Shown here one piece after another: positions 23,180-64,000 of a stretch of 64,000 bases of DNA; the first letter of the stretch is position 1; the number at the start of each line of letters is the position of its first letter. This stretch comes from an uncultured Pseudomonadales bacterium (GTDB lineage: Bacteria > Patescibacteriota > Microgenomatia > UBA1400 > PJMF01): positions 5,669-69,668 of the forward strand of contig CAZSJW010000002.1 in the NCBI GenBank assembly GCA_964607285.1, written 5' to 3'. The notes below the pieces were generated by a model, which had not been told where the DNA came from, made no database searches, and was given only the letters and a program-made list of their open reading frames with translations. A program made the position numbers and the translations under genes.

Positions 23180-24736
23180 ATGAACACAACTAAACAAAAT
23201 ACTAAAATGAGAGCCTGTTTGTATTTAAGGTTCAGTGATCCTAAACAAATTGGCAATACAAGCTTTGAAACTCAAGAACAGCTTTGTAGAAATGCTTGTC
23301 TTGCTGACGGATTCGAGGTGACTGAAGTAGTAAGAAATGAAGCTGTCTCAGCAGATAAAAATAAAACAGCAAGAATTATTGAACTGTTAGACTTTTGCAA
23401 GAAAAACAAAAGTAAATTTGAAGTTTTAATGGTCTTCAAGCTGGATAGATTTGCCAGAGGTCAGGAACAGCATCACTGGCTAAGGGGTCAGCTTACAAAG
23501 CTTGGAATCATACTTCGTTCAGCTACAGAGCGCATTGATGAGTCCCCATCTGGAAAATTAGTTGAGGGTGTTCTGGCTGCTGTAAATGAGTACGACAACG
23601 AAGTTAAACGGGAAAGAGTCAAATTGGCTATGTGGGCAAGGGTCGAACAAGGTTTATGGCCATGGGGTGCACCCACAGGGTATAAGGATGTACATCAGGC
23701 AGGAGTAAAGCTATCTCCGAAAGCAAAAGACGATAATGTGTGGGAGATCGTAAAGACAGAGATTTTTGAAAAGTATGCGACAGGTGTCGTAAGAAAAACT
23801 GATATTGCAAAAGTGCTACAAAAAAGAAAGATAAAAAACAATAAAGGTAGAATTATTAGGTTCTCAGAGCAATCAATTGATAATATCCTCAACAATATTT
23901 TCTACACAGGATACTTGGTAAACAAAGAAGGAAAATTCATTAAAGGTTTACATCAGCCAATTATTGATATGACTTTATTCGAAAGATGTAAGCAAGTCCA
24001 AATAGGGTTATCTAACCATGCTACCCAGAAAAGACAATATAATCATCCCGACTTTCCTCTGCGTCGTTTTGTGCAATGTGGTGAGTGCGGTAAGCCATTT
24101 ACAGCGTGTTGGGCTAAGTCTGGTCGCTATCCCTACTACTATTGTCGGAATAAAGAATGTCCCAAATTTTCCGTAAGTGTAAAAAAGGCAGATATTGAAA
24201 ATGAATTTCTTTCATATGTAAAAAATGTGAAGCCTGTGGATGATCTTGTACCAATTTTTAATAAAGTTTTTATTAGAAAGTATGAGATTAGAGAGAAAGA
24301 AATTAAGGGTGACTATCTACATAAGCTCAATGAAATCAAGTTACTGACAGATCAAGAGGATTACTTTGTTCAAAGTGGGAGAGATAAGATATTGCCTCCA
24401 AATATCGTAAAAAAGAATGTTGAAGATTTGGAACAAAAAATTACCATAGCCAAAATTGGATTAACAGAGATACACGCAGAAGAACTGGATGTAAACGCTA
24501 TGCTTATATTTGCAAGGGATTTTATTCGAACGATTGAATTTACCTGGTACTACGCTCCAATTGAGTACAAAGTCAAACTACAAAGGGCAATTTTCCCTGA
24601 AGGGCTGAAGTACCATTTTACAGGCTTTTCGAACTCCAAAATATCCCGTCCATTCAAGCTAATCAATGAAGTAGTAGATAAAAATTCAAATGTTGTGAGC
24701 CGAGAGGGACTCGAACCCCCGACCAGAAAGGTATAA
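23180..24736 (+). CDS. Large serine recombinase (resolvase/invertase catalytic domain + recombinase domain + zinc ribbon)
   Basis: N-terminus ACLYLRFSDPKQ...FEVLMVFKLDRFARG is a resolvase catalytic domain with the Ser nucleophile in the R-F-S-D context. Cys cluster CGECGKPFTACW...YYYCRNKECP. The last 13 codons are the complement of the tRNA 3' half. Confidence 0.8.
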   Translation: MNTTKQNTKMRACLYLRFSDPKQIGNTSFETQEQLCRNACLADGFEVTEVVRNEAVSADKNKTARIIELLDFCKKNKSKFEVLMVFKLDRFARGQEQHHWLRGQLTKLGIILRSATERIDESPSGKLVEGVLAAVNEYDNEVKRERVKLAMWARVEQGLWPWGAPTGYKDVHQAGVKLSPKAKDDNVWEIVKTEIFEKYATGVVRKTDIAKVLQKRKIKNNKGRIIRFSEQSIDNILNNIFYTGYLVNKEGKFIKGLHQPIIDMTLFERCKQVQIGLSNHATQKRQYNHPDFPLRRFVQCGECGKPFTACWAKSGRYPYYYCRNKECPKFSVSVKKADIENEFLSYVKNVKPVDDLVPIFNKVFIRKYEIREKEIKGDYLHKLNEIKLLTDQEDYFVQSGRDKILPPNIVKKNVEDLEQKITIAKIGLTEIHAEELDVNAMLIFARDFIRTIEFTWYYAPIEYKVKLQRAIFPEGLKYHFTGFSNSKISRPFKLINEVVDKNSNVVSREGLEPPTRKV

Positions 24737-24768
24737 GCTTTCCGCTCTACCGACTGAGCTATCGGCTC
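24696..24768 (-). tRNA. tRNA, 73 nt, anticodon UAU as read (AUA-decoding Ile-type, or another identity if the anticodon is modified); no encoded CCA
   Basis: Reverse complement GAGCCGA-T-A-GCTC-AGTCGGTA-GAGC-G-GAAAG-CTTATAC-CTTTC-TGGTC-GGGGG-TTCGAGT-CCCTC-TCGGCTC-A folds as a perfect cloverleaf (7-bp acceptor, 4-bp D stem, 5-bp anticodon stem, U33, A37, T-loop TTCGAGT). Confidence 0.75.
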
Positions 24769-28990: not shown

Positions 28991-29539
28991 ATGCTTGAGC
29001 AAAATGAAATTTTTCTAGAAAATTTTCTTTCAAATCCTGAGAGTGAAGATGCAGACAACTTTGAGCTCGTTGAGGGTCATCAGAATCTTATCCTGACTAC
29101 TGAAAGAAATTATCAAGAACTCAAGTCGCTAACTGATCAACTATTTAATGTTCCTAAAGTTGAAGAACAGAGCTCTCAGAACACAGATGAAAGTAATATT
29201 CATGTCAGAGTAGAACAACTACTTGCTTCACTATCTTCTACGCCTGAGTCTCTACTTGAGAGTGTCCCGCTTGAAACCGAGCTCTTTCAACTGAAGATTC
29301 ATTTGCAAAATGAGTATGAAATCGCAAATCAAAACTATTGGCGACAACGAATGGTCACGCAAGATGTTTCAAACAGCCTGAGTTATTTAGAATGGCAACG
29401 ATTTGAACGTTTCCCAAAGTTACAAAAATCCATTAGAAAAGCATTTCTGGGCATAAAATTGAAAAATGCAGAGAAAAAGAACTTAAGTCTAAAGCAAGGC
29501 AGGTTAAACTACTTAAAGAATACGGAAAAGGTATTTTAA
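28991..29539 (+). CDS. Hypothetical acidic protein, translationally coupled to the next gene
   Basis: 182 aa. Its TAA stop overlaps the ATG of the 1267-aa ORF (TAATG). Confidence 0.35.
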   Translation: MLEQNEIFLENFLSNPESEDADNFELVEGHQNLILTTERNYQELKSLTDQLFNVPKVEEQSSQNTDESNIHVRVEQLLASLSSTPESLLESVPLETELFQLKIHLQNEYEIANQNYWRQRMVTQDVSNSLSYLEWQRFERFPKLQKSIRKAFLGIKLKNAEKKNLSLKQGRLNYLKNTEKVF

Positions 29540-32500
29540 TGGATTCTGCTAAAGCTTTTGAAGTCTTTGCGCAACAGCTGACTATTGACCAATCAGTGCT
29601 TCGACCTATACAGGTGCAATTTATTAGAGAGCAGATCCTGCCAAACCTCACTTCAGATTTGGCTGCAAAAGTAATATCTCAGGAGGATGCCACTGATTTT
29701 TTGAAAAATTTACTTTCATTCTTAGAACATAGAGATTCAGACCAATCTTCAAATGAGTATCTGCTTCAATTGAGAACACACATAAATTATCCAGGAAAGT
29801 TCAACAATTATTTACATGTATGTGGGGAACTGATTAGTAAGACGGATCGCCAGCAAGTACAATTTCTGGTTCAACATGAAGCACATATTGAGATGCTCAG
29901 AATAAAAGAGATTTTGAACTCTGTTAACAGTCACGCAAACTGGAGTTCACACCGAGATAGCTCAATAGGGAATCATATTCAAGTTAAAAGCACTCTACCA
30001 TTCCCCTTTATTCCAAAACCTTTAGCATTCGATCAGTACGGGAACATAAATGAAAAAATCAATTTCAATTTTTGGAGGGCAGTAAACACTTCTGAGAGCC
30101 TGAAACCCATATATGGAGAGCTTCTTGTTCAACAAGATGCAGAGTTATACAGTCAAATTATAGACAAGTCACTCAATGATAATGAAGGCACTTACATTCA
30201 AAAATTAATTGACTTTCCGAAACCCGATAGTATTCATACTTTGTGTCTTATTGCAGCTGCAGATTATCAAAACTACCGAACGTACCATGCCAACAGTGTC
30301 TTGCATCGTTTAGCAAAAAGATCAGATTGGCCTACTCTGGTCGACGCAGCAATATCACAACATCCACACCTTGAGAGGGTAAAAGATCAACTATTGGGCT
30401 GGGATTTTAGCGGATACAACAGCAACACATCTTTCAGACAATCATTTAGTAACGTAGCTTTCGACATTGTAAGTCAAAGCGATGAGAATACAGATCATAG
30501 AGTATTTAAACTAGCTGCCGAAAGCTTGCCCAACCAGAATCTCATACCTAAGATCAAAGAAAGCAAAGAGCTAAGTGATGAACAGGTAGAATTGCTAAGA
30601 AACGCACTTGTAATTGCGGAAACAACCGTACATACAAACTACACTGGGTATGCTTTTGGTAATACGTTCCGTCGTTGGGCAATCATTTTAGCTTCAGACA
30701 AAACACAAACTGACATCGCTCGTCAGACATTAAGCTCACTTGCATCCTTATCAAAAGAAATAATTAAACAAAAATCTAATCCGATACTGCTCGATTACTT
30801 TCTAACCACAGCCGTTTCACTGCTGGATGTAGGACAAGATGCTGAGACATTGGAAGCAATTGCACAGTATCCACAACTTTGCCCAGCAGCCTTTGAGGGG
30901 GAAGGTAAGAATATATCTAGCGTGTACGTATCTGAGTTGTTTAAAAAAAACCCAGAGCTACTAAAAGTTCGTTCACTACCCTCGGTAAACAATTTGCTAG
31001 CCGCATATAAAAATAATGACTCTATATTATCTGAGATAATTTCATTATTAAGCAATAATTCAATTTCCATAGAAAGAGCAACGGAGCTACCAAGTCTGCA
31101 CCCCAATCTCTTCCTAAACCACCGCTTCTATCTTGCGGCCGCATATCCTGCAATATATCTCTCCGACACTAAAGCTGTAAACTTCTTTTTCGAGTTGGAA
31201 ACTATTTACTCAGAAATGGATACTACGCTGGTATATGAAGTATCAAAAGGAATTGACAAAGGTCTGCCAAAAGATCTTGCAAAAATACTGCCTAAGCAGT
31301 TACCAATTATTTTTGATGTCACCATGAACTTTGCGCGCGCAAGTTTATTCGACAAGCCACACCTAGCATTGCGAGACATGCGGCAAGTCAAGTTTTTGAA
31401 AGAATTTATAGGAAAACATGGACCCTTAGCAAATCAACTGATATCAGATTGGACATATTGTTTACAGCAAGAAGCGATTATGCCAAATGACACAGATATT
31501 GTTATGGAATTTTGCGACAAATTCAGACTAATGACACCAGAAATTATAGGTGGTTATAAAATTGCCAGAGAAAATGGTCAAGGAGATGTGTACTTAGATT
31601 CAGTCATGAATTCTGCCCAGTCATTAATTAGAAGTGTTCCACCAACAGAAACTGAACGAGGTTTGCCATATTATGCTGCACTGGTACGGGGCATTTTTCC
31701 AAACAATGCTGGCCAGTATGGCAAGTATGAGGCTATAGCTAGTTGTAGTGATAGGTCAAGTGATATTGAAAAATACAAGTTTGAGGAGAGATACATTCTT
31801 GATTTAGTTGACGTAACTAGCATCAAGTTAAAAGAAGGTGAAACTTTATCTAAAGAAGCTATTCATCCAATCACCGATGTTATTTACCAGATTGCACATC
31901 ATTTTGAATCGCAAACTTACGAACCAGAAAAAATGCAAGCTCAACTTGCTCAGGAAGTAGAGGCTGTAATGTTGACAGCACTACAATCACCAGACAAAGA
32001 ACTCAATCAGCAGCTATCAGCAGCCAACTCTATTGAAGAAAAACTGTTTTTACTACTTGCAGCGGTTAAGTATGGCAAAATGAAACATTTAGAACCTACT
32101 GTAAAACAGTTGCTGATCACTTATGAATTTGCATACTTCCAAGACGTACGTGAGTACATAAACGGTACAAACGATCGAGTGAACGGTTCTTTAAATCCTG
32201 ATTATTCCTTGCTTACTGAGCTACATTCTTTCTATGCAGATAGACTAAAAGAAATTAATAGGAAAATTATTAAATCAGCTTGGCAAAATACAGCAATCCA
32301 AAATTATCTAAAGGATGTATATAAAAAACTTGCGCAAGAAAAAGTAGTTGAAGAAAAATATGTACTTTCAAAAAAATTGAGAATAGAGAATCTTGGTATC
32401 AGTGAACCATTTCTCAAGCGAATTGCTGCAACGCTAAAGAATAAAAATGGTAGGGAGTCCTCTGTTGAAAAAGTCGCATCTCTCATTAATCGCTATGAGC

Positions 32501-33342
32501 GAATGACAATGGGGTTTACCCAACATAATAATGCTAGTGATGGCAATGAGGCACAGGCAATCATAGGTCAAATAGTTGCTCAAAAAAATAAATCTATTGC
32601 AGCTTGGCAAGCATTAACTGGTGAGCAGCTTGACCCAAGCCAAGTCTTCTTAAATGAAATCAACCTTTCGCAGTACATGGACCACATAACTCGGAATTTT
32701 GAGGGAACAATCTCCGACGAAGGATATGCCAGCTACACTGGAGAACTATTTGCGTCAGTCTATGAGGAGGAAATGCTCATCTTGGAAGGAGAACTAGATA
32801 AATTTGTCAGCAAATCAGGTAAAAAACGCAGAGTTCTAAATGGTTTTATTTCTAAAACCAAAGAGAGTGCGCATGCCCGAATGGTTGGTGGTGTCTGCGT
32901 CAGTCGAGATACACCAAGCAACAATACTGAAAACATGTGGGACATGGAAAACTACTTTCAATTTGTCTACCAAGATCCTGAAACATTGCGCTGCGTTGGG
33001 CTTTGCCTACTACATGAATATAGTGATCAAGGGAAGAAAATATTGACCGTCTCCATTAACCCTTCTGCCACATACCTACAAAATATTGATGAAAAAGTTC
33101 TTTTTGATAAAACACTAATTGAGTTAGCAAAATTTGCTAAGAGTAATGGCTTCGATATGATATGTTCATCTAGTAACGAGGCAATCAGGACTAATCGGAC
33201 TGGCGGACTATTTGAAAAAGCCTTTAAAGCTCATGTGGAAAGAATTAATAAAAAGTTCACTTTTTCAGAAGCAAAAATTTTCTCATATAATCCCGCCTAT
33301 TCCATGAAGGAAATGGATATATTGTGGGAAAATGGCAGCTAA
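29539..33342 (+). CDS. Very large hypothetical cytoplasmic protein (1267 aa) without recognisable catalytic motifs
   Basis: Long uninterrupted ORF with coding-like composition. No TM and no Walker or other motif recognised. The C-terminal ~150 aa (…VGGVCVSRD…CVGLCLLHEY…) looks like a compact alpha/beta domain. Confidence 0.45.
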   Translation: MDSAKAFEVFAQQLTIDQSVLRPIQVQFIREQILPNLTSDLAAKVISQEDATDFLKNLLSFLEHRDSDQSSNEYLLQLRTHINYPGKFNNYLHVCGELISKTDRQQVQFLVQHEAHIEMLRIKEILNSVNSHANWSSHRDSSIGNHIQVKSTLPFPFIPKPLAFDQYGNINEKINFNFWRAVNTSESLKPIYGELLVQQDAELYSQIIDKSLNDNEGTYIQKLIDFPKPDSIHTLCLIAAADYQNYRTYHANSVLHRLAKRSDWPTLVDAAISQHPHLERVKDQLLGWDFSGYNSNTSFRQSFSNVAFDIVSQSDENTDHRVFKLAAESLPNQNLIPKIKESKELSDEQVELLRNALVIAETTVHTNYTGYAFGNTFRRWAIILASDKTQTDIARQTLSSLASLSKEIIKQKSNPILLDYFLTTAVSLLDVGQDAETLEAIAQYPQLCPAAFEGEGKNISSVYVSELFKKNPELLKVRSLPSVNNLLAAYKNNDSILSEIISLLSNNSISIERATELPSLHPNLFLNHRFYLAAAYPAIYLSDTKAVNFFFELETIYSEMDTTLVYEVSKGIDKGLPKDLAKILPKQLPIIFDVTMNFARASLFDKPHLALRDMRQVKFLKEFIGKHGPLANQLISDWTYCLQQEAIMPNDTDIVMEFCDKFRLMTPEIIGGYKIARENGQGDVYLDSVMNSAQSLIRSVPPTETERGLPYYAALVRGIFPNNAGQYGKYEAIASCSDRSSDIEKYKFEERYILDLVDVTSIKLKEGETLSKEAIHPITDVIYQIAHHFESQTYEPEKMQAQLAQEVEAVMLTALQSPDKELNQQLSAANSIEEKLFLLLAAVKYGKMKHLEPTVKQLLITYEFAYFQDVREYINGTNDRVNGSLNPDYSLLTELHSFYADRLKEINRKIIKSAWQNTAIQNYLKDVYKKLAQEKVVEEKYVLSKKLRIENLGISEPFLKRIAATLKNKNGRESSVEKVASLINRYERMTMGFTQHNNASDGNEAQAIIGQIVAQKNKSIAAWQALTGEQLDPSQVFLNEINLSQYMDHITRNFEGTISDEGYASYTGELFASVYEEEMLILEGELDKFVSKSGKKRRVLNGFISKTKESAHARMVGGVCVSRDTPSNNTENMWDMENYFQFVYQDPETLRCVGLCLLHEYSDQGKKILTVSINPSATYLQNIDEKVLFDKTLIELAKFAKSNGFDMICSSSNEAIRTNRTGGLFEKAFKAHVERINKKFTFSEAKIFSYNPAYSMKEMDILWENGS

Positions 33343-33395: not shown

Positions 33396-35783
33396 CTACA
33401 AATTACTCCTACTCTGAATCTCAATCTCCACAGCCTCACGATCCTTGCCATACGTCAGCCGTGATAAGTCCTTAATCATTTCTGCTTGCTTGGGGTTCAT
33501 CCGCGCCATCACCGCATCCATGTCCTTTTGCAAAGACATACTAAACGGTGGCACAGGCTCGTTTTTGACGATGGTTTTAATGTAAACATGATATTTCTCA
33601 ATGTTTGTTAAGTCATTTTCATTAAATGTCGGTGCAAACTCGTGCTGCAAGAAGTTTGCATCTGGCACACCAACGCGGAAGGAAACCATTGTACCGACGT
33701 TTCCAAACACTGCATTCTTTACTTCTTCATCAATCTGCCCAATAAACTGATTGGCAACAATGAGACTCAAACGATACTTACGAGCTTCAGACAAAATCAC
33801 CGCAAAGTCCTCGGTGGCATAGTTCTGGAACTCGTCCACATACAGGAAAAAGTCCTTGCGGTCCGCCATGGGAATATCTTGCCGACTCATTGCGGCAGTA
33901 AGCACTTTCGGCACTAGGATCAAACCTAAAAACTTAGCATCTTCTTCTCCCAAAATACCCTTGGACAAGTTGCACAAAATGATTTTTTCAGCATCCATTG
34001 CCTGGCGAATATTGAATGAGCTTTCTGGCTGACCAATAATATTACGCATAGTTTTGTTGGTCACAAAGCGACCAAACTTGGACACAATGTAGTCCAGAAC
34101 TTCAGACTTATGAAAGTCGGAGGTTTGGGCAATTTGATCAGTCCAATAGCGTTTCACCACTGGATCTTTCACAATTGGCAGCAACTGGTCGACATACTTA
34201 CTATCAGTCAAAGCGCGCACTAACTCAATAAACGTGGTGCCTTTTTTATACATGATAGTCAACATAGCATTGCGAATAGCATGCTCAAACCGCGGACCGA
34301 TAATACCTGTGCGGTGCGGATCGTACAACTTATACATAAGCCCGATGACTGAACCAACCACAAAGTGACGCTGTTCTTCTGTGTCTGCTTCCATCATGTT
34401 CAGACCCATTGGTCGAGTCAAATCTGACGGATTAAAGTAGATCACATCGTCTGCGCGCTCGGGCGGCATGAGCTGTAAAATATCCTCCACAAACTCACCA
34501 TGAGGATCAATTGCACAGACACCTTTGCCATTTTCGATGTCCTGCAAGATCATTTCTTTCAAAAACTCTGACTTACCAGTACCTGTTTTACCAATAATGT
34601 ACATGTGACGCCGTCTGTCATCTTCGGAAATATGTACTTCACGAACTTCACCCCGATATTTTGATTTGCCCAAGCGCAAACCAGTGGTAGGGATATTGTG
34701 CGGTGCGGGAGCATGTTTCGCGGTCAACCATCGAATATGATGTGTTTCCACCGTTTTGTTTGGCAGATGGAAAATTGTAGCTAGTTCCTCAGGGTTTAGG
34801 ATAAACGTGCCTTTGTTGAAAAGAGGCATATATCGATAAATAAAATCAATCATGTACAGCTGTTTAATCCAAACTCTGTGACGCTTAAACGTGTTGTATG
34901 CAGAGGTAAACTGGGCAAATGCACCAGTGATGTTATTCATGTGAGACTCAGCTGAGTCTTCTTTTTGTGCAGATACCAAAACTCTCAGAGATACTCGAAA
35001 TCCTGGCTTTTCGATTTTATTGCTGATACTCTCCATCTCCTTAGGGTCATGGCCATAGGTTGCTTTTTGAGGGTCTGCTTCTCGTTTTTTCTCACGCTGT
35101 ATGTACGAGCGTGCTTGATTTTGCCATCTTTTGCCTGTGGGCTGGAGCAGTAACTGTACTATTGCGCCTTCACCCTCGCTCATTTTAGAAAGTGCTGAAG
35201 TAAGTAAAGACAAACCATCGGTGGGGAGATCCTTGTAGTTCTTGAGCGGGTAATAACTTGCTTTCTCAAGTGTCAGACTTGCAAAAGATACTCTACCTTT
35301 TTCACTGAAAATATTGACTTCATCGGTCTCTTTTATGTCTGCATTTGGGTAGGCTCCATGAATTTGTTTTTCAACTAAGTCGCGTATTCGTTTCGGACAG
35401 TTTACATAAAATGCAATTTCTTCCTTAAGGGCCACGATTTCAAAAGAAAATATGTCCTCTACTTTAGTCCAAGCCCAAAAACCATGTTTCTTCAAAGAGT
35501 ACAATCCCGCGAACATTTGCTCTGCTGCATCAATCTTAATTTCATTTTCTTTTGGAAGGCGAACCAATAACGTAACAAAATCCAGTGAGTATGCCTCTCT
35601 ATTGCGATGCTTCCACCACTGGAACAACATATATAAGAAAACAAGTATGATCGCACTAGATAGTACAATCAGTATGAAACTGGAAATCAAGCCAACAGCT
35701 GAACCAGTTAGGTCAGTTGTGGCTAGTGTTTTTGCTGTATCAACTGCAGTTTTTGCTGCACCCTCAGCTGCGTTTGGTTCCAT
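33396..35783 (-). CDS. Membrane-anchored P-loop ATPase of the type IV secretion/conjugation family (VirB4/VirD4/TraG-like, DUF87/AAA_10-type)
   Basis: 795 aa. N-terminal TM hairpin (LISSFILIVLSSAIILVFLYMLFQWW). Walker A IIGKTGTGKSE followed by AIDPHGEF, and Walker B FFLYVDEFQNY. This architecture matches T4SS ATPases or coupling proteins. Confidence 0.55.
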   Translation of the reverse strand: MEPNAAEGAAKTAVDTAKTLATTDLTGSAVGLISSFILIVLSSAIILVFLYMLFQWWKHRNREAYSLDFVTLLVRLPKENEIKIDAAEQMFAGLYSLKKHGFWAWTKVEDIFSFEIVALKEEIAFYVNCPKRIRDLVEKQIHGAYPNADIKETDEVNIFSEKGRVSFASLTLEKASYYPLKNYKDLPTDGLSLLTSALSKMSEGEGAIVQLLLQPTGKRWQNQARSYIQREKKREADPQKATYGHDPKEMESISNKIEKPGFRVSLRVLVSAQKEDSAESHMNNITGAFAQFTSAYNTFKRHRVWIKQLYMIDFIYRYMPLFNKGTFILNPEELATIFHLPNKTVETHHIRWLTAKHAPAPHNIPTTGLRLGKSKYRGEVREVHISEDDRRRHMYIIGKTGTGKSEFLKEMILQDIENGKGVCAIDPHGEFVEDILQLMPPERADDVIYFNPSDLTRPMGLNMMEADTEEQRHFVVGSVIGLMYKLYDPHRTGIIGPRFEHAIRNAMLTIMYKKGTTFIELVRALTDSKYVDQLLPIVKDPVVKRYWTDQIAQTSDFHKSEVLDYIVSKFGRFVTNKTMRNIIGQPESSFNIRQAMDAEKIILCNLSKGILGEEDAKFLGLILVPKVLTAAMSRQDIPMADRKDFFLYVDEFQNYATEDFAVILSEARKYRLSLIVANQFIGQIDEEVKNAVFGNVGTMVSFRVGVPDANFLQHEFAPTFNENDLTNIEKYHVYIKTIVKNEPVPPFSMSLQKDMDAVMARMNPKQAEMIKDLSRLTYGKDREAVEIEIQSRSNL

Positions 35784-52265: not shown

Positions 52266-52793
52266 ATGCTGCATTTTTCCAACATTATCAAAACAGTGAA
52301 TATTACTCGGTTACTGCTAGTAGGATTATTGTTCGTTGCACTGAATGTGGGAACAGTAAGCAGCGAGTCAAACCAGGTATTTGCAGCAGAAACTTGTTAC
52401 GAAACTTGTATTAGAATAGGTGGTAGTCCTGGAAAATGTGAAGATGACTGCGGTGGTCCTCCTGTTGATGTATTCAACCCAAAAGCAGGTCCCAGCTCCG
52501 AAACGTTTGATTTTCTCAACCCATTAGAACTCGGTTCAAAAGCTAGCACGCTTTCCACTCCTGGAGGGATAATTTCTGAAATCTTGGTATTTATTTTCCC
52601 TCTAGCTGGGTTAGTTCTATTCTTAATGCTTGTATGGGGTGGCTTTGAAATACTAATTGGGGGTGCAAACAAGAAATCAATTGATACAGGTAAACAGCGC
52701 ATTACTTCAGCACTCACAGGATTTTTCTTACTCTTTAGTTCGTACTGGATTACTCAAATCCTAGAGTACATTTTTGGCGTTGCAATTCTGTAA
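52266..52793 (+). CDS. Pilin-like two-helix protein (TrbC/VirB2-like fold), paralog 2
   Basis: Signal peptide, Cys-containing head (CYETCIRIGGSPGKCEDDCGG). C-terminal module ...LFLMLVWGGFEILIGGANKKSIDTGKQRITSALTGFFLLFSSYWI. Confidence 0.5.
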   Translation: MLHFSNIIKTVNITRLLLVGLLFVALNVGTVSSESNQVFAAETCYETCIRIGGSPGKCEDDCGGPPVDVFNPKAGPSSETFDFLNPLELGSKASTLSTPGGIISEILVFIFPLAGLVLFLMLVWGGFEILIGGANKKSIDTGKQRITSALTGFFLLFSSYWITQILEYIFGVAIL

Positions 52794-55541: not shown

Positions 55542-56096
55542 CTACTCCAACACTACTTTTGACCAAACAGTTTTAAACTCAATTCTTGCCCGAAATAGCT
55601 CTGCTTCCACAGCCTTGATAGTTCTACCAACAATATGAGCTATTTCTGCAACTGATTTCCCATCAACATACTTGAGCTGCAGCAACTCACTCTGCGTTGC
55701 CTTCATTTTGCTTAGAACGACAACTACGCCAGCTGTGCTATTTGCATACGCTTCTCCCTGATCTGAAATCTCAAGAGAATCGAGTTCCAAAAACTGCGAG
55801 AGGGGCAGTGACTTCAATGCTCGCTTTGCATACCGTCTGCGATAGTAGTCAGCTATTTCATGACGAGCTATTGCACACATCCAAGTCCACAAGCTTGATT
55901 TTCCAGAGAACAAAGGTAGTTGCCGCAACGAATTCACAAAAATTTCTTGCACAATATCTTCAGCGTCAGCTTTACTCGAAATTTTTCCCGACACGTACCG
56001 TAATAATTTACTGTGGTATTGTATAAACCACGATCGTACAGACTGCGGATTGCCAGACTTCAAGGAATCAAGTAATTTTGCATCTGAAATGTGCAT
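55542..56096 (-). CDS. RNA polymerase sigma factor, ECF (sigma-70 group 4)
   Basis: Region 2 DAEDIVQEIFVNSLRQLPLFSG…WTWMCAIARHEIADYYRR and region 4 SVAEIAHIVGRTIKAVEAELFRARIEF. Confidence 0.75.
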   Translation of the reverse strand: MHISDAKLLDSLKSGNPQSVRSWFIQYHSKLLRYVSGKISSKADAEDIVQEIFVNSLRQLPLFSGKSSLWTWMCAIARHEIADYYRRRYAKRALKSLPLSQFLELDSLEISDQGEAYANSTAGVVVVLSKMKATQSELLQLKYVDGKSVAEIAHIVGRTIKAVEAELFRARIEFKTVWSKVVLE

Positions 56097-56163: not shown

Positions 56164-56529
56164 ATGATTGGACTTCTGGTTGGTATCGTTGGAAAAGCCT
56201 ATGCGCAAGTGGACTGTTCCCCTGGCGCAGGCGGACTAAACTTGGCAAACTGCCTACAACTGAGTGATGGTCAATATGTTCGAGATGTTTATACAAGCCC
56301 TGCGTTTCTCGTAAACCTAATCGTACGCAACTTGTTCATTGTTGCTGGTATTGTGCTTTTTTTCATGATCATGCTCGCAGGATATAAATTTCTTTATAAA
56401 GACAAAGGTGGTCTGGAAGATGCAAAACAAATTCTCTTCAACGCCGTCATTGGTTTTGTCATCATGTTTTCAGCTTACTGGGTAGTACAATTAATCGCGC
56501 TTATCACTGGAGCAGACATTAGAATTTAA
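56164..56529 (+). CDS. Pilin-like two-helix protein, paralog 3
   Basis: Signal peptide, head with a Cys pair (DCSPGAGGLNLANC). Module ...IVLFFMIMLAGYKFLYKDKGGLEDAKQILFNAVIGFVIMFSAYWV. Confidence 0.5.
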   Translation: MIGLLVGIVGKAYAQVDCSPGAGGLNLANCLQLSDGQYVRDVYTSPAFLVNLIVRNLFIVAGIVLFFMIMLAGYKFLYKDKGGLEDAKQILFNAVIGFVIMFSAYWVVQLIALITGADIRI

Positions 56530-56531
56530 TT

Positions 56532-56981
56532 ATGCATCGTCTACGCCAACTACTACCTCGCCTCATGATGCTCATCATGATTGCAAGTGTGTTTTTGGTT
56601 CTACAAACACCAACTGTCTTTGCTCAGGCTGGTGATCCTTTTGGCACGATAGATACTCCTCCTGGTGTCGAGGTGATCAACCAACGATCAGGTCTGGGAG
56701 CTGATGAAATCCCTATTCTTTACTTCATTAGCATGCTTATCAGGCTAACAACTATCATAGCGGGTGTATGGGCACTACTTAATTTTATTCTGGCTGGCTG
56801 GGCGTACTTAGGCTCAGGGGGAAACGCTCAAGCACACACACAAGCAAGAGACCGTACAACCATGACTGTTCTTGGCTTGCTGCTTATGGTAAGTGTATAC
56901 ACCATTGCAGGCGTGATTGGCTTGATTTTCTTCGGAGACGCAAGTTTCATACTGAACCCAACCATAACAGGACCACTATGA
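56532..56981 (+). CDS. Pilin-like two-helix protein, paralog 4
   Basis: Module ...VWALLNFILAGWAYLGSGGNAQAHTQARDRTTMTVLGLLLMVSVYTIAG. Overlaps the next gene by 4 nt. Confidence 0.5.
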   Translation: MHRLRQLLPRLMMLIMIASVFLVLQTPTVFAQAGDPFGTIDTPPGVEVINQRSGLGADEIPILYFISMLIRLTTIIAGVWALLNFILAGWAYLGSGGNAQAHTQARDRTTMTVLGLLLMVSVYTIAGVIGLIFFGDASFILNPTITGPL

Positions 56982-57526
56982 GGTTTTTTTACTCTAAACT
57001 TACGCTTTCAGTCGCTTTTTTACTCATACTTTTTATGGTTTCTGTCTTTGCTCCAACTGCTGCCCAGGCGCAACAAGGCGGTTGTGTTCGTCCAGGGCAA
57101 TGTATAAATGGTAAGCTGTGTGATTGTCTTGATGGTATGGGATGCTTCCCATCTAATCAGACATGTACCGTTGATGACCCTACCTCAATCACAGGTACAG
57201 TCACTCCCCCACAAGGTGTCGCCGAGTACAATTCCTTAGCGGGAGGTATAGGCATCCTCTCCTTTGCTTCAAAGATTATTTTTTTACTAAACGTAGGTGC
57301 AGGTTTCTTTGCCATGTATAACTTCTTGACCGCGGGACTTATGTACGTGACAGGAGCAGGTGACAGTGGTGCCCACACGAAAGTAAAAGATAAACTCACC
57401 TTTACTTTCGTAGGTATAGCACTAATCGTTTCTACCTATACATTGGGAGGACTGATTGGTTTGATTTTCTATGGAGACGCCAGCTTTTTACTAAATCCAC
57501 AGCTGCAAGGAGCACTGGAGAACTAA
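56978..57526 (+). CDS. Pilin-like two-helix protein, paralog 5 (Cys-rich head)
   Basis: Head GGCVRPGQCINGKLCDCLDGMGCFPSNQTC. Module ...FAMYNFLTAGLMYVTGAGDSGAHTKVKDKLTFTFVGIALIVSTYTLGG. Confidence 0.5.
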   Translation: MRFFYSKLTLSVAFLLILFMVSVFAPTAAQAQQGGCVRPGQCINGKLCDCLDGMGCFPSNQTCTVDDPTSITGTVTPPQGVAEYNSLAGGIGILSFASKIIFLLNVGAGFFAMYNFLTAGLMYVTGAGDSGAHTKVKDKLTFTFVGIALIVSTYTLGGLIGLIFYGDASFLLNPQLQGALEN

Positions 57527-57532
57527 TCGTAG

Positions 57533-57934
57533 TTGTTATATACTATCTCTAATATGTTTGTCATACTCCCCACACTTATTGCGCAGTTCGGCGGTGGCTT
57601 TGATACTACAAACATGCCACTTAGCCAGGGCTCTGACACTGAGGAAGGTGCTCTTACTAATTTTGAGTTAATTATCTCCAACTTTATCGGCTTCATGACA
57701 GTGCTTGCAGGCATTTTTTTTATTGTCTACTTCATAATCGCTGCATTCAACTGGGTCACCTCTGGAGGAGACTCCGGAAAGCTCCAAAGTGCACGAGATC
57801 GCATGTTGCACGGAATTTTAGGATTAATAATAGTTGTTGGTAGTTACGCAATAGTCGGTTTACTGGGTACAATCATTGGTTTAGATGTACTTAGACCAGC
57901 AGATGCCATTCGAGATACATTAATCCCAAGGTAA
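57533..57934 (+). CDS. Pilin-like two-helix protein, paralog 6
   Basis: Module ...IFFIVYFIIAAFNWVTSGGDSGKLQSARDRMLHGILGLIIVVGSYAIVG. Confidence 0.5.
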   Translation: MLYTISNMFVILPTLIAQFGGGFDTTNMPLSQGSDTEEGALTNFELIISNFIGFMTVLAGIFFIVYFIIAAFNWVTSGGDSGKLQSARDRMLHGILGLIIVVGSYAIVGLLGTIIGLDVLRPADAIRDTLIPR

Positions 57935-57939
57935 TACTC

Positions 57940-58383
57940 ATGCACTCACCATCAAAACACACACAGTATCTAAGCAAGGTGACACTAGTTGGATTGTTTG
58001 CAACTCTATTTTCTCAGACAACTCAAGTTTCAGCTCAAATTAGCAACCCCGCCATTAAAGAACTAGGCTCAGCAGATAATGTCACGGCGGCAGAAAGTGG
58101 CTCACTATTTGCAGGATACTTTGTCTCTCTCTGGAGTTCCGTCATTTCACTTGGTGCAGTTGCAGTGCTCATTTACTTCGTATGGGGATCATTTGAGTGG
58201 ATCACTGCAGGTGGCGATTCAGCCAAAACAGATAAAGCACGCCAAAGGATCACAAACGCTATGCTTGGTCTATTTATTCTTGTGAGTACATTTGTTATCA
58301 TTAACTTTATGAGCTTCCTGTTCTTCGGTGATGAGTTCCAAATTCTCAGAATTACATTCCCAGGAGCTAGCACAGGACTATAA
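57940..58383 (+). CDS. Pilin-like two-helix protein, paralog 7
   Basis: Module ...AVLIYFVWGSFEWITAGGDSAKTDKARQRITNAMLGLFILVSTFVIIN. Confidence 0.5.
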   Translation: MHSPSKHTQYLSKVTLVGLFATLFSQTTQVSAQISNPAIKELGSADNVTAAESGSLFAGYFVSLWSSVISLGAVAVLIYFVWGSFEWITAGGDSAKTDKARQRITNAMLGLFILVSTFVIINFMSFLFFGDEFQILRITFPGASTGL

Positions 58384-58385
58384 GT

Positions 58386-58775
58386 ATGGCTTTTATTGCT
58401 GACATTCCAACTGAACCAGGATCTGGGGGTGGACCAGTAGATGGTGCATTACTCGATTTCAAGAACAAGTCGATTGATGTTCTGCCAGGAGTAGATACCG
58501 TAACGGCATACTCACCTGGAGGTAGTTTCGGTGCTTTGATCGGTCAAATCATGAGCATCGCCATGACAATCGCAGCGATATTACTTCTGCTCTATTTTGT
58601 TTGGGGCGCAATTGAGTGGGCTGCTTCAGGTGGAGACAAAAGCAAAATCGAAAAAGCCCGAGGGAGAATTTCAAACGCGATTACAGGTATTATCGTACTA
58701 TCATCCACAGCAGCAGTTATCATGATCGTTCAATCCTTCCTTGGTATTGAGATTCTCAAGTTTACAGGTTTATGA
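58386..58775 (+). CDS. Pilin-like two-helix protein, paralog 8 (terminates at a TGA that is followed by an in-frame open extension)
   Basis: Module ...LLLLYFVWGAIEWAASGGDKSKIEKARGRISNAITGIIVLSSTAAVIM. Stop TGA at 58773-58775. Confidence 0.5.
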   Translation: MAFIADIPTEPGSGGGPVDGALLDFKNKSIDVLPGVDTVTAYSPGGSFGALIGQIMSIAMTIAAILLLLYFVWGAIEWAASGGDKSKIEKARGRISNAITGIIVLSSTAAVIMIVQSFLGIEILKFTGL

Positions 58776-59070
58776 AATCCTGACTATGGTGGTGGCGGCA
58801 TCAGCGGTTATCCCAATGGTGGTGGTGGCGGAAGTGGTGGTTCTGGCGGAGGATCTGGCGGAGGATCTGGCAGTGGCACCTGTACTCTTGGACAAGGTCT
58901 CCTCAACGACGGCGGTGCTGGTAACTACTGCACACAAGGTGCGGCTATGGTTGAGTGTCACGGCCCAGACACTCACCCAAATGGGAGCTATACTTATAAC
59001 CACTACGATCCTTGTTACTGTATAGACGGCACACAGTATCAACGACCTAATTACGATTTTGGTTCATGTT
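58776..59070 (+). other. In-frame, stop-free 98-codon extension beyond the TGA of 58386..58775, encoding a Gly/Ser linker plus a 6-Cys module; no start codon of its own
   Basis: Translation NPDYGGGGISGYPNGGGGGSGGSGGGSGGGSGSGTCTLGQGLLNDGGAGNYCTQGAAMVECHGPDTHPNGSYTYNHYDPCYCIDGTQYQRPNYDFGSC*. Same frame as the upstream pilin gene. The first in-frame ATG is at codon ~65 and has no RBS. Confidence 0.4.
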
Positions 59071-59075
59071 AAAAC

Positions 59076-59110
59076 TTGACTCTAAGATCGCTAACTCTGT
59101 ATAATGAATT
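59076..59110 (+). promoter_or_regulatory. Near-consensus sigma-70-type promoter upstream of pilin paralog 9
   Basis: TTGACT (59076-59081), 18-nt spacer, TATAAT (59100-59105), followed by a second TGTTATAAT. RBS AGGAG 7 nt before the ATG at 59169. Confidence 0.5.
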
Positions 59111-59168
59111 GGTACTCTGTTATAATAATTACAACAACGTACATAAGTACGATACAATAAGGAGCGCA

Positions 59169-59573
59169 ATGAAAAATGCCTTAAGAAAAATTTCTACTCT
59201 GGGAGCCAGTGTTAGTGCTGGACTTCTTACTGTAGTCTCTGCCGTACAAGCTCAGGGTGTGGACATCGCTCCAATCAACCCAGGACAAGGCTTCTTCGAC
59301 GACGTAGGTGTACTGATCAACGGCTTATTGAGTTTCGTTATGGTTCTTGCAGCACTACTCGTTTTTATGTACCTCATCTGGGGTGGCATCGAATGGATCA
59401 CATCTGGTGGCGACAAAGGCAAGACAGAGTCAGCACGTAATAAAATTACCTCAGCTGTTATCGGTTTGATTGTCTTGGCTGCTTCGTATGCCATCTTGCT
59501 ACTCGTCCTAAGCTTCTTAGGCTTCGGTAGCTTGAATGACGTCTTCGATAACATTAAACCTGTAGCAAACTAA
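59169..59573 (+). CDS. Pilin-like two-helix protein, paralog 9
   Basis: ATG at 59169 with an AGGAG RBS; the ORF-track TTG start at 59076 is the promoter -35. Signal peptide MKNALRKISTLGASVSAGLLTVVSAVQA. Module ...LLVFMYLIWGGIEWITSGGDKGKTESARNKITSAVIGLIVLAASYAIL. Confidence 0.55.
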   Translation: MKNALRKISTLGASVSAGLLTVVSAVQAQGVDIAPINPGQGFFDDVGVLINGLLSFVMVLAALLVFMYLIWGGIEWITSGGDKGKTESARNKITSAVIGLIVLAASYAILLLVLSFLGFGSLNDVFDNIKPVAN

Positions 59574-59594
59574 TATATTACTACACAACTCAAA

Positions 59595-59624
59595 CCCTCC
59601 GTTGCAAAACGGAGGGTTTTTTGT
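59595..59624 (+). terminator. Rho-independent terminator after pilin paralog 9
   Basis: CCCTCCGTTgcaaaAACGGAGGG followed by TTTTTTGTTG (9-bp stem, 5-nt loop, T-run). Confidence 0.7.
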
Positions 59625-59685
59625 TGAAACAGAACGTTTTCATTACTACTAGGCAGTACTGATATATTTTTATATACTACCGCTC

Positions 59686-60276
59686 ATGTCAAAAGGTGGT
59701 TCAATCATTGCTACAACAATCCTTTTTTTGGGTTTGGTGCTGTACAGTACCCAATCGGTCTTTGCATCGGTGAGCTCAGAACACAACATTATTCGGGGAG
59801 CAGATGGCGTGATCTACATATCTACAGAACTTAATGACACCCAAGAGTTGAGCAACATACCCTCTAATTTAAAGTCAAATCAAACTCCCGCCCCCTCACA
59901 AATTGACCAGACTAAACCTTCACCTGCCACTCCTTCTGCTACTCCAAATTCCACTCGCAAAATCAAAGGAGTTAAACCAATAACTATGCCTGAGGGGTTT
60001 TTTGCAAATATTACAACACTAATTAACGGATTACTGCGCGTAGTATTCCTAATAGCTACGTTACTCACTTTTTTGTTTCTCCTGCGTGGTGGTTTCTCCT
60101 GGATTACATCTGGGGGTGATCGAGGCAAACTTGAAAGTGCTAGAAGTACCATACTTGCTGCAGTCATTGGATTGATAATCGTAAGTGCCAGCTACGCCAT
60201 TCTCACCATAGTGATCCAACTAATTGGTTTCAATTCCCTAGAACAAGTATTCCAACAAGGGCTCACTCGCCAGTGA
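59686..60276 (+). CDS. Pilin-like two-helix protein, paralog 10 (Pro/Ser/Thr-rich head)
   Basis: Signal peptide; head QTPAPSQIDQTKPSPATPSATPNSTRK. Module ...LLTFLFLLRGGFSWITSGGDRGKLESARSTILAAVIGLIIVSASYAIL. Confidence 0.5.
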   Translation: MSKGGSIIATTILFLGLVLYSTQSVFASVSSEHNIIRGADGVIYISTELNDTQELSNIPSNLKSNQTPAPSQIDQTKPSPATPSATPNSTRKIKGVKPITMPEGFFANITTLINGLLRVVFLIATLLTFLFLLRGGFSWITSGGDRGKLESARSTILAAVIGLIIVSASYAILTIVIQLIGFNSLEQVFQQGLTRQ

Positions 60277-60305
60277 TCATAAGACTTGCTATAATGGAAA
60301 TATAT

Positions 60306-60746
60306 ATGAAATCATTCCTTGCCAAATCCAAAAAAATTCTCTCTGCAACCACTGCCTACCTTGCGCCACAAATAGCATCACTCGTGATTGCAACACAGGT
60401 ACACGCGCAGTCTGAATGGACGGGAGTCTGCGTGGGCGGAGGATCTGAAGACCCCAGTGTCAAGGATGTAGCAACAATTCAAGGGTTAGAGTGTTTGATT
60501 GCAAATGTATTTAGTGTTGCAATCACCTTGATTGGACTTGCAGGTTTTGTGATGTTCATAATTGGTTCATTTCGCTGGCTAGCATCTGGGGGCAACTCAA
60601 AACAAATCGAAACTGCCAAAGGCAGCATGACCTATGCAGTTGTGGGACTCGTAACTTCGCTGAGTGCATTTATAGTTATAGAGTTACTTGCCTCTTTCAC
60701 TGGGGTAACCATTCTTCGCACCTTTAGCATCCCAACCTCTAACTAA
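60306..60746 (+). CDS. Pilin-like two-helix protein, paralog 11
   Basis: ATG at 60306 with TATAAT at 60290-60295. Signal peptide; head with Cys (GVCVGGGSEDPS…GLECL). Module ...FVMFIIGSFRWLASGGNSKQIETAKGSMTYAVVGLVTSLSAFIVIE. Confidence 0.5.
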   Translation: MKSFLAKSKKILSATTAYLAPQIASLVIATQVHAQSEWTGVCVGGGSEDPSVKDVATIQGLECLIANVFSVAITLIGLAGFVMFIIGSFRWLASGGNSKQIETAKGSMTYAVVGLVTSLSAFIVIELLASFTGVTILRTFSIPTSN

Positions 60747-60783: not shown

Positions 60784-63700
60784 ATGCGTGCAGCAGCCAT
60801 TGCTCTCCTAGCATTTTTTTATCTTAGTATTGTGCCTCTTTTAGTGCCTGCGCAAGCACAATCTGGTGCTGCTGCCACACTGGCTGCAGACATTGATGAA
60901 TTTTTCTCCCGAGGAGCTACTGGTTTTATTGTTTGGCAATACGGTGGTGACTACAACGGCAGGCAAATTGCAGTCGACCAATTCACTTTTTACCGTGACA
61001 GAGACACTGAAATATGTGCTGTCATGAAAGAAAAAGCCTCTGCAAACCCTGGAAAATTTATTGGCGTCAATATCAATAATATTGGTGCTATTGAATTTAC
61101 GGGTGGCGTGGCTACAGACCACTTTACATGGTTAAAGGCAAATTGTGGTGTGAGCGTGGTTCGTGTGTTTGCAAAGATCGAGGGTGCTGCGGGTGTACAA
61201 AATGCCCTCACCGCTGGTGAGCAAGCAGGAGTACAAATACTTGTTGCTATTGGTGACTATAGCAACGGTGGTGGTGGTATGCCGCAAGGTGCAGACCAGT
61301 CTTGGTACGAAACAGGCTACAAAGGTGAGTACCAAGCACTTGTGCAACAGCTGGCCGCACTCAAAGGCCATTCTGCGCTATACGGTTTTGAACTTGCAAA
61401 TGAGCCACACTGTGGCGGCAACGCCGCGGCAATTGAAGCCTACAAAAACTGGGGAATTGCCATTAGTGCGCTTTTAGGACATCCAAAAGTAGGATATGGC
61501 CAGATGGCAAGCCAAAATACTACCAGATGTGATAGTCCAGGTCCTGGTGACTTTTCTATCACCAATGCTGTGCCTGGCATAACAATGACCTCAGCACATT
61601 ACTACTCTACTCAAGAAAAAGCCAATGCTCTTTTAGCATTGACACAAAGCTTGCAAATTGGCAAACCGTTCTACATTGGAGAAGCACCACCAGGAGATAT
61701 TGGAGCAGAAGGAAGTACCTACAATGCTGATGACGCCTGGTACTACCTCCACCCTATTCGTGGTGTATCTCCAGGTGGAAATGTCCCTGAAAGATCTACG
61801 GATATCATTCGTGAAGACCTTGCCAATCAAGGCTACCAAACATACTGTGCTGCATCCGATGCAACAATCAAGCTTGAGGTGAATACTGTGGATATTATGG
61901 AACGCTTTATTTCCTTGTACGGTGGTGTGGATCTTGAAACCACCTCGACCTACGATCAAAGTACCATGAACAGTCGCACTCCTTTGTACCGTGATGTTGG
62001 CGGAAAGCGATTTTACAACTCCTCCATCGAGGAGTATTTTGGCTACATAGATAGCATCAATGAGTCCCCTAGTCGGTCTGAAATTCAAACTGCACCTGTA
62101 AACTCATTACTATCAGCTGAACAGCGCTGCATTCAATCAGTCAGTGCGCTGACAGCCGCTGAACTCATGTGTGAACGGCTCAAAGATTGGGAGAAATGCG
62201 CCTTGTTCTCCAGACCAGTTCCCACTACGGACTGGAATGTGAAACAGCTACTTGAGAAAATTGGTGCCGTTATGGAACACAGAGCTGGTGGCATATCTGC
62301 TGGGTGTAGGAAGCTTTTTGGCGGTACTGGTTCTACAGAAAGCTATACAGAACTGCAAAAAGCAATCCTTAACACGCCATACTACTTGGACAGGTCATAT
62401 CGTTTAGGATTTCTCGTCACAACCATTGAATATAAACGATACAACCCACCCGATCTTTTCAACTTTTTCTCAGCGAAACATCGTGGTAATGATGCTGCAC
62501 AAGAAGACCCAAGACATGAAGTTTTAATCACTGCATTCAAAATTCCCGATATCCTCACAAACAAAGGTGGCGGTGAAACAAGCGGACATACGTACTGGGA
62601 TGATCCAGCCATGATCACTCGTAATACCTTAGTCCCCAAAAAAACAGGTTTTGATGTGTTCAAGCAAGGAGCGGAAACACTGCGAAATGAAACTAAGGCC
62701 ATGGCTAAGGCAGCAAGTAACCAAACAAGCAGTTCTACTATTTACTGCATCAAAAACGGTGTCGGAAGTCCCGCTTGTCAGGACGAGCTCGGAAAAGCCA
62801 TTGTCGATTTGATAAACGGCAGAAGCCCTAGCTGTGATGCCAATACAGATGAGCCAGTTTCCGAGATAAGCGATTCAGGCCAAATTCCGTTTGGTATTGT
62901 ACCCGTAACGGATTCAGGATTACTTTTTAGACCTGGATATGGGTTTGGAGAAGAACTTTTTGTAGAATTATTCAAAAATTATGACGATTTAACTAGTCAA
63001 AACCCACATCTTGCTAAAACAGATCCAGTGTTATCACTTTTTAAAATTGCAGGTGGCTGGCAACTCGGTCCAACGGCGCAGGCCAAGTTCTACCTCGTCT
63101 ATCCAATGGGGTATGAACTTGAAGAAGTGACAAACGTACTGCAAGGCACCTTTTTCACTGCTGAACAAATCAGCACCCTCACTTCCAAAGATCCGCCAGC
63201 AGATCGTTTTGAACTAAAAAATGTCAGTAGCGGCTTGAGCGGAGGAACTGCAAGTAAATCCTTCCCTGATACAACTGATCCAGGAAGCTGTCAGCCTGTG
63301 ATCAATCCCACCACTGGCCTTCCGTTCAGAGACCCAGAAACTGGTCAGATTGTTACGAAGTGTCCAGAAAAGGAATTTTCATTAAGTATCTTACAAACTG
63401 GTGGGGGCGGCAGCGCGCTCACAGGAGCTAGACTAGGATACTGGTTGCGCAAGCTGCAACTTACCCTGAACCCAATTTTTACCAAATCATATGCGTATAT
63501 CCAATCTTGCAGAACGACGGAACAGTTTCTTTTGGGCACTTGTGCTGGAGGACCTGTGCTGACGCCATCGTATGGTAATGGTTCAGCATCCGATCCCAAC
63601 TGTGGCATTGGTTTTCCAACTGGGGATGAGATCAACCCGCCATACGAAGCACAGTCTCCACTTGTAGCTGGTATTACCCAAGTACCAAAAACACCATACT

Positions 63701-64000
63701 TCGGTCGAGCTATGTACTACGGGAAAGGGTTAATGAACCAGGTACTGGAAAATAGACGAGCTCAATTTCCAGAAAGCATGGTCAAGGACTGCGAAAATGG
63801 AACTGATCCCAAATATATCGGGTGCGTTGCACTACTGAGAGCTGGAGATATGGGTCGTGAGATTTGGATGCAACGTCCTGGGCAAGAGCCTGAAGGGCCA
63901 TTCTTAGTTATAGACGTGGCTTCGAAAAAAGATATTTCCTGTTTACTTTCCAGAGAGTGGATTGTTGACATAGACTGGCGAACTGCTGAACGCTGGGGTA
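60784..64000 (+). CDS. Very large secreted protein with an N-terminal glycoside hydrolase family 5-like (TIM-barrel) domain; 3' end beyond the window
   Basis: Signal peptide MRAAAIALLAFFYLSIVPLLVPAQA. GH5-like acid/base motif GFELANEPHCGG (NEP). The ORF stays open for >1070 codons to the window edge. It is missing from the ORF track, presumably because no stop lies within the window. Confidence 0.55.
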   Translation, partial: MRAAAIALLAFFYLSIVPLLVPAQAQSGAAATLAADIDEFFSRGATGFIVWQYGGDYNGRQIAVDQFTFYRDRDTEICAVMKEKASANPGKFIGVNINNIGAIEFTGGVATDHFTWLKANCGVSVVRVFAKIEGAAGVQNALTAGEQAGVQILVAIGDYSNGGGGMPQGADQSWYETGYKGEYQALVQQLAALKGHSALYGFELANEPHCGGNAAAIEAYKNWGIAISALLGHPKVGYGQMASQNTTRCDSPGPGDFSITNAVPGITMTSAHYYSTQEKANALLALTQSLQIGKPFYIGEAPPGDIGAEGSTYNADDAWYYLHPIRGVSPGGNVPERSTDIIREDLANQGYQTYCAASDATIKLEVNTVDIMERFISLYGGVDLETTSTYDQSTMNSRTPLYRDVGGKRFYNSSIEEYFGYIDSINESPSRSEIQTAPVNSLLSAEQRCIQSVSALTAAELMCERLKDWEKCALFSRPVPTTDWNVKQLLEKIGAVMEHRAGGISAGCRKLFGGTGSTESYTELQKAILNTPYYLDRSYRLGFLVTTIEYKRYNPPDLFNFFSAKHRGNDAAQEDPRHEVLITAFKIPDILTNKGGGETSGHTYWDDPAMITRNTLVPKKTGFDVFKQGAETLRNETKAMAKAASNQTSSSTIYCIKNGVGSPACQDELGKAIVDLINGRSPSCDANTDEPVSEISDSGQIPFGIVPVTDSGLLFRPGYGFGEELFVELFKNYDDLTSQNPHLAKTDPVLSLFKIAGGWQLGPTAQAKFYLVYPMGYELEEVTNVLQGTFFTAEQISTLTSKDPPADRFELKNVSSGLSGGTASKSFPDTTDPGSCQPVINPTTGLPFRDPETGQIVTKCPEKEFSLSILQTGGGGSALTGARLGYWLRKLQLTLNPIFTKSYAYIQSCRTTEQFLLGTCAGGPVLTPSYGNGSASDPNCGIGFPTGDEINPPYEAQSPLVAGITQVPKTPYFGRAMYYGKGLMNQVLENRRAQFPESMVKDCENGTDPKYIGCVALLRAGDMGREIWMQRPGQEPEGPFLVIDVASKKDISCLLSREWIVDIDWRTAERWG

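Follow-up and report, generated by a model that had tools for sequence, protein, structure and literature searches.

Is the stop codon of a pilin gene that is followed, in the same frame, by a further 98 open codons a recoding signal, or does it interrupt a longer gene? The gene lies at positions 58386 to 58775 (stop included) on the + strand of the 64,000-nucleotide stretch of DNA analyzed here (the window), where it is annotated as a pilin of 129 aa that ends in a TGA at 58773 to 58775. Past this TGA, 98 sense codons (58776 to 59069) run up to a TAA at 59070 to 59072, and their translation leads from NPDYGGGGISGYPN through GGGGGSGGSGGGSGGGSGSG into a 64-aa module with six Cys residues. The initial annotation, whose coordinates and translation of the TGA, the Gly/Ser linker, and the six-Cys module agree with those obtained here, had offered three origins for it: programmed UGA read-through or recoding, a fusion gene hit very recently by a nonsense mutation, or an error in sequencing. 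It had also described the extension as lacking a start of its own, and this is the case because the earliest in-frame ATG, GTG, or TTG past the TGA is the ATG at 58947, in the middle of the module.

The same annotation considered an open run of this length improbable by chance. As far as the run itself is concerned, this stands, the probability of 98 open codons being ~0.003 with the base composition of the window and ~0.010 with the local composition. The 67 ORFs with 120 aa or more are followed by a median of 12 open codons after their stop; the longer runs, five in all, each correspond to the next gene in the same frame. However, two further frames are also open over the GGN-rich stretch, one on the + strand (58741 to 59025, 94 aa) and one on the - strand (58770 to 59042, 90 aa), and openness alone is weak evidence because GGN-rich DNA keeps other frames open too. 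It is protein homology that identifies the frame past the TGA as the coding one.

A homology search with the whole 98-aa extension gave no match and a query without the linker succeeded, the Gly-rich words having presumably interfered in the former. When 1.84 billion representative proteins were searched exhaustively with HMMER, the 64-aa module (the head; 58878 to 59069, + strand) gave 159 hits, and all full-length matches are C-terminal in pilins of 170 to 250 aa or lie in fragments of such pilins. No stand-alone module gene was found in this search, the sole short match (P0011, 57 aa) being a fragment from a 386-nt contig with a cluster-mate of 188 aa. Orthologues with an independent start for the module, a possibility raised in the initial annotation, were likewise not found. 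Instead, the pilin, a Gly-rich linker, and the module occur as one continuous protein in at least 25 Patescibacteria protein clusters. The ORF is also uninterrupted in four related loci (L005, L006, L007, and L008), from which the window differs by the TGA at 58773 to 58775. The related loci are from Patescibacteria MAGs; L005 and L006 were recovered by a DNA-level metagenome scan and carry pilin, Gly-rich linker, and module in one ORF. A protein search with the pilin plus the module added 18 further fused relatives, together with the window's own annotated product (P0151). The subfamily is defined here by the alignment A3, which contains 25 fused relatives and the window.

As judged from these alignments, the extension of 98 codons constitutes the last two-fifths of a conserved pilin-linker-head fusion gene that is interrupted here. 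The TAA at 59070 to 59072 (+ strand) is the ancestral stop of the fusion gene; in L007 and L008, the intact genes end with a TAG at the aligned position. The annotated product P0151 (129 aa, identical to the window pilin) has a single occurrence in the protein collection, from an NCBI contig of 118,852 nt, and this public annotation overlooks 98 codons of intact domain behind the stop.

In the interrupted gene, the first 129 codons (58386 to 58772, + strand) encode a VirB2-like domain (PF18895, T4SS_pilin; Pfam E = 2.5e-8, 34.3 bits against a cut-off of 26.6). Two hydrophobic helices around a short basic loop (W..W..GGDK.K...AR) can be read from the sequence, and W78, G83, D84, K87, and A91 are invariant or nearly so across the family (A3). 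Behind the stop, the translation gives the junction motif and a Gly/Ser flexible linker (58776 to 58877, + strand), in which a perfect 12-nt tandem repeat of 2.5 copies is detected by TRF (58842 to 58871).

The in-frame TGA between these two parts (58773 to 58775, + strand; context UUA-UGA-A) occupies the position of a Trp codon. A comparison of the DNA at the stop site (alignment A2) gives GGT TTA TGA AAT for the window, GGT CTG TGG TCT for L007, and GGT TTG TGG AAC for L008; TGG is therefore common to the two closest relatives at the aligned codon, and the window differs from it by one G>A at the third codon position (58775). The proteins of these two relatives are P0152 (222 aa; locus L007, Logan SRR29109022) and P0095 (211 aa; locus L008, GCA_020049755.1). 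Both proteins read FTGLW(S/N)PDYG where the window gives FTGL-*-NPDYGGGG, and the junction motif NPDYGGGGISGYPN of the window is also found in them, as SPDYGGGGTTGYPP in P0152 and as NPDYGSGG in P0095. Read with Trp, the window frame would give FTGL-W-NPDYGGGG, with EILKFTGLWNPDYGGGGISGYPN as the predicted junction peptide. Moreover, none of the 25 fused relatives in A3 has a stop at this codon, all of them carrying a sense codon, so that the comparison of orthologous loci proposed in the initial annotation does reveal a sense codon under the stop. Over the pilin part, the identity between the window and P0152 is 73%, and no relative closer than ~73% over this part was found in the databases searched, which sets no bound on the age of the G>A change.

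The module downstream of the stop is undecayed. Across A3, Cys is invariant or nearly so at six positions, the motifs DGG.G.YC, A.V.C, and Y.H..PC.C and the terminal C are conserved, and the post-stop frame of the window retains all of these motifs along with the invariant Cys, Gly, Tyr, His, and Pro residues. Its identity to the C-terminal domains of 22 pilin proteins is 52 to 70%. Scored against a leave-one-out profile, the window module reaches 94.1 bits and ranks 8 of 26, with 83.8 bits for P0152 and 79.5 bits for P0095. Also, pN (0.29 to 0.31) is far below pS (0.88), with synonymous sites saturated and the same picture being expected from a very recent stop.

AlphaFold2 with the family alignment predicts a confident small beta-rich domain (mean pLDDT of 86.5, pTM of 0.72), for which a Foldseek search found no structural relative with E < 0.9 in PDB or BFVD. 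No Pfam family was found for the module, and no family member matches Flg_new. Kinship with this Listeria-Bacteroides repeat (PF09479) was rejected, the profile-profile probability being 0.2%. The matches to Flg_new proteins involve module residues 30 to 63 and giant proteins with 4 to 18 matched stretches, with phmmer E values down to 1e-70; they are spurious, a weak single-sequence similarity that is multiplied by the number of repeats. More generally, summed scores on repeat proteins call for caution, half-module matches to near-identical repeats having reached E values of 1e-70.

The window module also has features of its own. A 12-nt in-frame insertion (58962 to 58973, encoding PNGS) is unique to it and missing from all 25 relatives. 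P0152 is the nearest relative for the pilin part and the junction, but the module is closer to the distant P0153, P0154, and P0157 (67 to 68%) than to P0152 (54%), and it is without an inserted loop (NASGNYSP-like) that is common to P0152, P0095, and P0163. The gene thus has a mosaic look, which could be due to exchange of modules via the Gly-rich linker DNA or to derived changes in the P0152/P0095 lineage. A Tajima-type relative-rate count gives 12 versus 3 for the window module, a count confounded by derived features common to P0152, P0095, and P0163. Faster change in the window module was rejected, and the excess is discounted because the window module is nearer to the family consensus and the relatives carry the derived loop.

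The interrupted gene is the sixth of a tandem array of nine VirB2-like pilin paralogs (56164 to 60746, + strand), recognized by PF18895 and by synteny with L007. A PF18895 match is present in 8 of the 9 genes, with E values up to 1.5e-3, and 6 are above the Pfam cut-off. A divergent ECF sigma-factor gene (55542 to 56096, - strand) precedes the array, and directly after it a large ORF (60784 to 64000, + strand; >1072 aa), whose N terminus carries a signal-like segment and for which Pfam gave no match, runs off the window end. The synteny with L007 holds gene for gene, from an ECF sigma gene through nine pilins, among which the fused one is again the sixth, to an ORF of >1105 aa at the same place. 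The large ORF may be a conserved partner of these pilins. Neighboring pilins are 65 to 84% identical between the window and L007. The next pilin (134 aa, ATG at 59169) is 84% identical and lies behind a strong and conserved sigma-70-type promoter (59076 to 59105, + strand; TTGACT, 18 nt, TATAAT; 11 of 12 matches in a promoter scan), in which the window, L007, and L008 share CTTGAC ... TCTGTATAAT without a difference; an AAGGAG ribosome-binding site is located between this promoter and the ATG. The promoter marks the end of the transcription unit that holds the interrupted gene. Elsewhere in the window, there are a tenth pilin (52266 to 52793) and a VirB4/TrwB-like ATPase with DUF87 and TrwB_AAD_bind domains (33396 to 35783, - strand), the latter adjoined by an ORF of 1267 aa without Pfam hit (29539 to 33342, + strand). 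The ATPase and the 1267-aa ORF are probably T4SS components, ~23 kb from the pilin array.

Additional modules are seen on other pilins. The paralog at 56978 to 57526 (+ strand) has a Cys-rich segment at its N terminus, after the signal peptide (CVRPGQCINGKLCDCLDGMGCFPSNQTC), with a weak match to TNFR_nem (E = 0.09). This suggests that such modules occur at either pilin end, the array apparently decorating its pilins with Cys-rich modules at both. At the array position of the interrupted gene, the orthologues L001, L002, L003, P0168, P0170, and P0172 have very different C-terminal tails. These can be G/S/P/N-rich, of 33 to 40 aa, short and ending in Cys, or Cys-rich and unrelated to the head (P0168: ...SCAARSGACRSSCVTGSSSVGQMNCGSGLTCCVAGPR); G/S/P-rich tails are found in L001 and L002 and other Cys-containing tails in P0168 and P0170. 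Two orthologues at the same position, L004 and P0171, have no tail at all. The pilin C terminus thus appears to be a hot spot for the gain and loss of modules, and the variability of the tails among orthologues would fit a fast-evolving contact surface.

Several explanations could account for a stop within this fusion gene. One of them, a reassignment of UGA to Trp (code 4) or Gly (code 25) or its use for selenocysteine, has in its favor the ancestral Trp, which code 4 would also give, and the use of code 25 by some Patescibacteria-related lineages. However, TGA is a genuine stop elsewhere in the window, where it ends 13 of the 64 non-overlapping ORFs, several of them via ATGA stop/start overlaps, and where, over 19,295 codons, TGG is found in frame 220 times and TGA not once apart from the present case. 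Two neighboring pilins end with TGA where L007 likewise has a stop (TGA and TAA), the TGA at 58773 to 58775 is the only one that splits a gene within the window, and the sole other TGA flanked by long open runs divides two genes, each with its own start. The initial annotation had already held a global code-25 reassignment to be unlikely, and these counts confirm it. No suppressor tRNA or tRNA with anticodon UCA was found within the window, where the only tRNA is a tRNA-Ile with anticodon TAT (UAU) (24695 to 24768, - strand; ARAGORN; Rfam, 70 bits); in most bacteria, AUA is read by a lysidine-modified CAU tRNA, and a genomic UAU anticodon is uncommon. Selenocysteine was rejected because the homologues carry Trp rather than Cys or Sec at the stop position and no SECIS or structure is found, a SECIS_4 match 100 nt downstream scoring 16.7 bits against a gathering score of 38. 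A reading of UGA as an amino acid throughout this genome is therefore highly improbable, and the same low probability applies to the module being an independent small gene or its open frame a compositional accident. Three frames open in GGN-rich DNA would be compatible with an accident, but not so the resemblance of the module to 22 pilin C-terminal domains; as for a separate gene, translation from the earliest start (ATG 58947) would remove two Cys, no signal peptide is present, and the one short protein among the matches is a fragment. For practical purposes, UGA reassignment, selenocysteine, and a separate gene behind the stop are refuted. Frameshifting by +1 or -1 and re-initiation were also rejected: the ATG overlapping the TGA gives an ORF of only three codons (ATG AAA TCC TGA), and the other open frames are low-complexity and without homologues. 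This ATG is missing from L007 and L008. The stop lies inside ttATGAaa (58772 to 58783), the usual stop/start overlap motif.

A UGA kept leaky by selection and fixed, which would give mostly head-less subunits and a small head-tagged fraction by Trp-tRNA, as with the coat and A1 proteins of Qbeta, is a better candidate, although still an unlikely one. The stop falls exactly at the domain boundary, it is the only stop codon that near-cognate decoding turns back into the ancestral Trp, and the module is fully conserved, the lineage-specific in-frame insertion included. The UGA is followed by A, a context that Engelberg-Kulka reportedly found to be leaky in E. coli in 1981, and Qbeta offers the precedent of a structural subunit extended by UGA>Trp read-through. 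Nonetheless, the stop is unconserved, with a sense codon in 25 of 25 fused relatives, two of them with FTGLW, and the window holds no second example. The programmed read-through isoform of the initial annotation would be expected to leave traces that are not seen: the 141 nt around and downstream of the UGA are no more stably folded as RNA than shuffled sequence (MFE z-score of +0.89, with an equal or better fold in 163 of 200 shuffles), and Rfam gives no element at threshold near the stop, only sub-threshold noise. Besides, a single base change in a single lineage is indistinguishable from a fresh mutation. That TGG>TGA is a fixed and selected "dimmer switch", with mostly bare pilin and a few percent head-tagged via UGA>Trp decoding, is for us improbable; if true, it would represent a cellular counterpart of Qbeta coat/A1 read-through, on a T4SS pilus. 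Less easily dismissed, but with the odds clearly against it, is that the TGA comes from an artefact of sequencing or assembly, or from a minority allele, the true codon being TGG in an ordinary intact pilin-head fusion gene of 228 aa. The 98 downstream codons are perfectly intact and near the family consensus, one base separates the window from its relatives, and nothing corroborates the TGA because the sequence is single in public data. Against this, consensus substitution errors are rare, and the 64 kb hold no other split genes, with intact ORFs of 1267, 969, 795, and >1072 aa, which argues against an error-prone assembly. More likely, and in our view probable, is that the G>A is a true nonsense substitution of very young evolutionary age, perhaps a variant of the population that entered the MAG consensus. 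A real mutation is favored over an error because the rest of the assembly is clean and the loss of a domain has natural precedents at this position. On the other side, the undecayed downstream frame, with its 12-nt insertion, is equally expected from an intact gene or from selected read-through. Taken together, a recent nonsense mutation or an assembly error, rather than a programmed recoding signal, is most likely; both had been listed initially and both fit with relatives in which the gene is one ORF with TGG.

According to the favored explanation of a young nonsense substitution, the ancestral gene would have encoded a VirB2-like T4SS pilin (two membrane helices around the GGDK-K/R loop), a Gly-rich linker, and a 64-aa disulfide-type head with six Cys, and a single G>A would have turned the Trp codon at the pilin/linker boundary from TGG into TGA. 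The main product would then be a tail-less pilin of 129 aa, with the head switched off. This truncated product is probably a viable pilin form because naturally tail-less orthologues exist (L004, P0171), and the event would be the loss of a head and not the death of a gene because the truncation leaves a pilin equivalent to those forms. Head-tagged protein would arise solely when the Trp-tRNA outcompetes RF2 and reads the UGA as a near-cognate codon (typically 0.1 to 1%). Stop-codon read-through amounts to 1e-3 to 1e-2, and at UGA it reflects Trp-tRNA competing with RF2 (PMC10570021). Such decoding would put the ancestral residue back in place, so that traces of head-tagged pilin from background reading of UGA are plausible, their level presumably low.

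A comparison with known systems helps to place this locus. In Qbeta, the coat UGA is read as Trp by the normal Trp-tRNA about 1 time in 15, giving a minor extended A1 subunit (PMC8067240). The likeness resides in a UGA at a domain boundary, with Trp being, in the window, the ancestral residue. However, the Qbeta stop is conserved and essential, whereas the window stop is absent from every relative, and there is thus no evidence of selection on it. Genetic codes 4 and 25 also place UGA where relatives have an amino acid, but UGA terminates elsewhere in the window genome. A further counterpart is an ordinary nonsense-interrupted gene in a MAG, with a single substitution, an otherwise intact ORF, and a truncated product in the annotation (P0151). 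Unlike in an ordinary young pseudogene, the truncation here coincides with the boundary of two domains, and the pilin that remains is complete and probably functional, which would bring the case closer to domain loss than to gene death.

As for the array, VirB2-like pilin arrays (PF18895) are described in Patescibacteria, with 441 arrays of 2 to 11 genes and low identity between paralogs, in the part of PMC12102498 covered here. Like them, the window has tandem divergent paralogs, nine in this case, and an ATPase in the same window. What the interrupted paralog and at least 25 clusters add to that scheme is a C-terminal Gly-rich linker and a six-Cys domain, the latter not being mentioned in the same part of that source; in contrast to the intact head-bearing clusters, the window head is cut off by the stop codon. 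This head-bearing subfamily of Patescibacterial VirB2-like pilins is undescribed and is a modestly interesting by-product of the analysis, which otherwise was mostly clean-up, turning an apparent recoding site into a single-base interruption of a conserved fusion gene.

Finally, pilins of the VirB2/TraA family have both termini facing outward and the basic loop toward the cytoplasm or lumen. Since both termini face outward, the head would be displayed on the pilus surface, with six Cys able to form disulfides, and its role may be adhesive. A linker-tethered six-Cys domain without Pfam family or structural relative recurs at one position of the array, and the interruption offers a natural test of the amount of head-tagged pilin that basal UGA>Trp read-through can supply. 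The six-Cys head is a candidate host-contact adhesin on a pilus that is reported as essential in a cultured relative.
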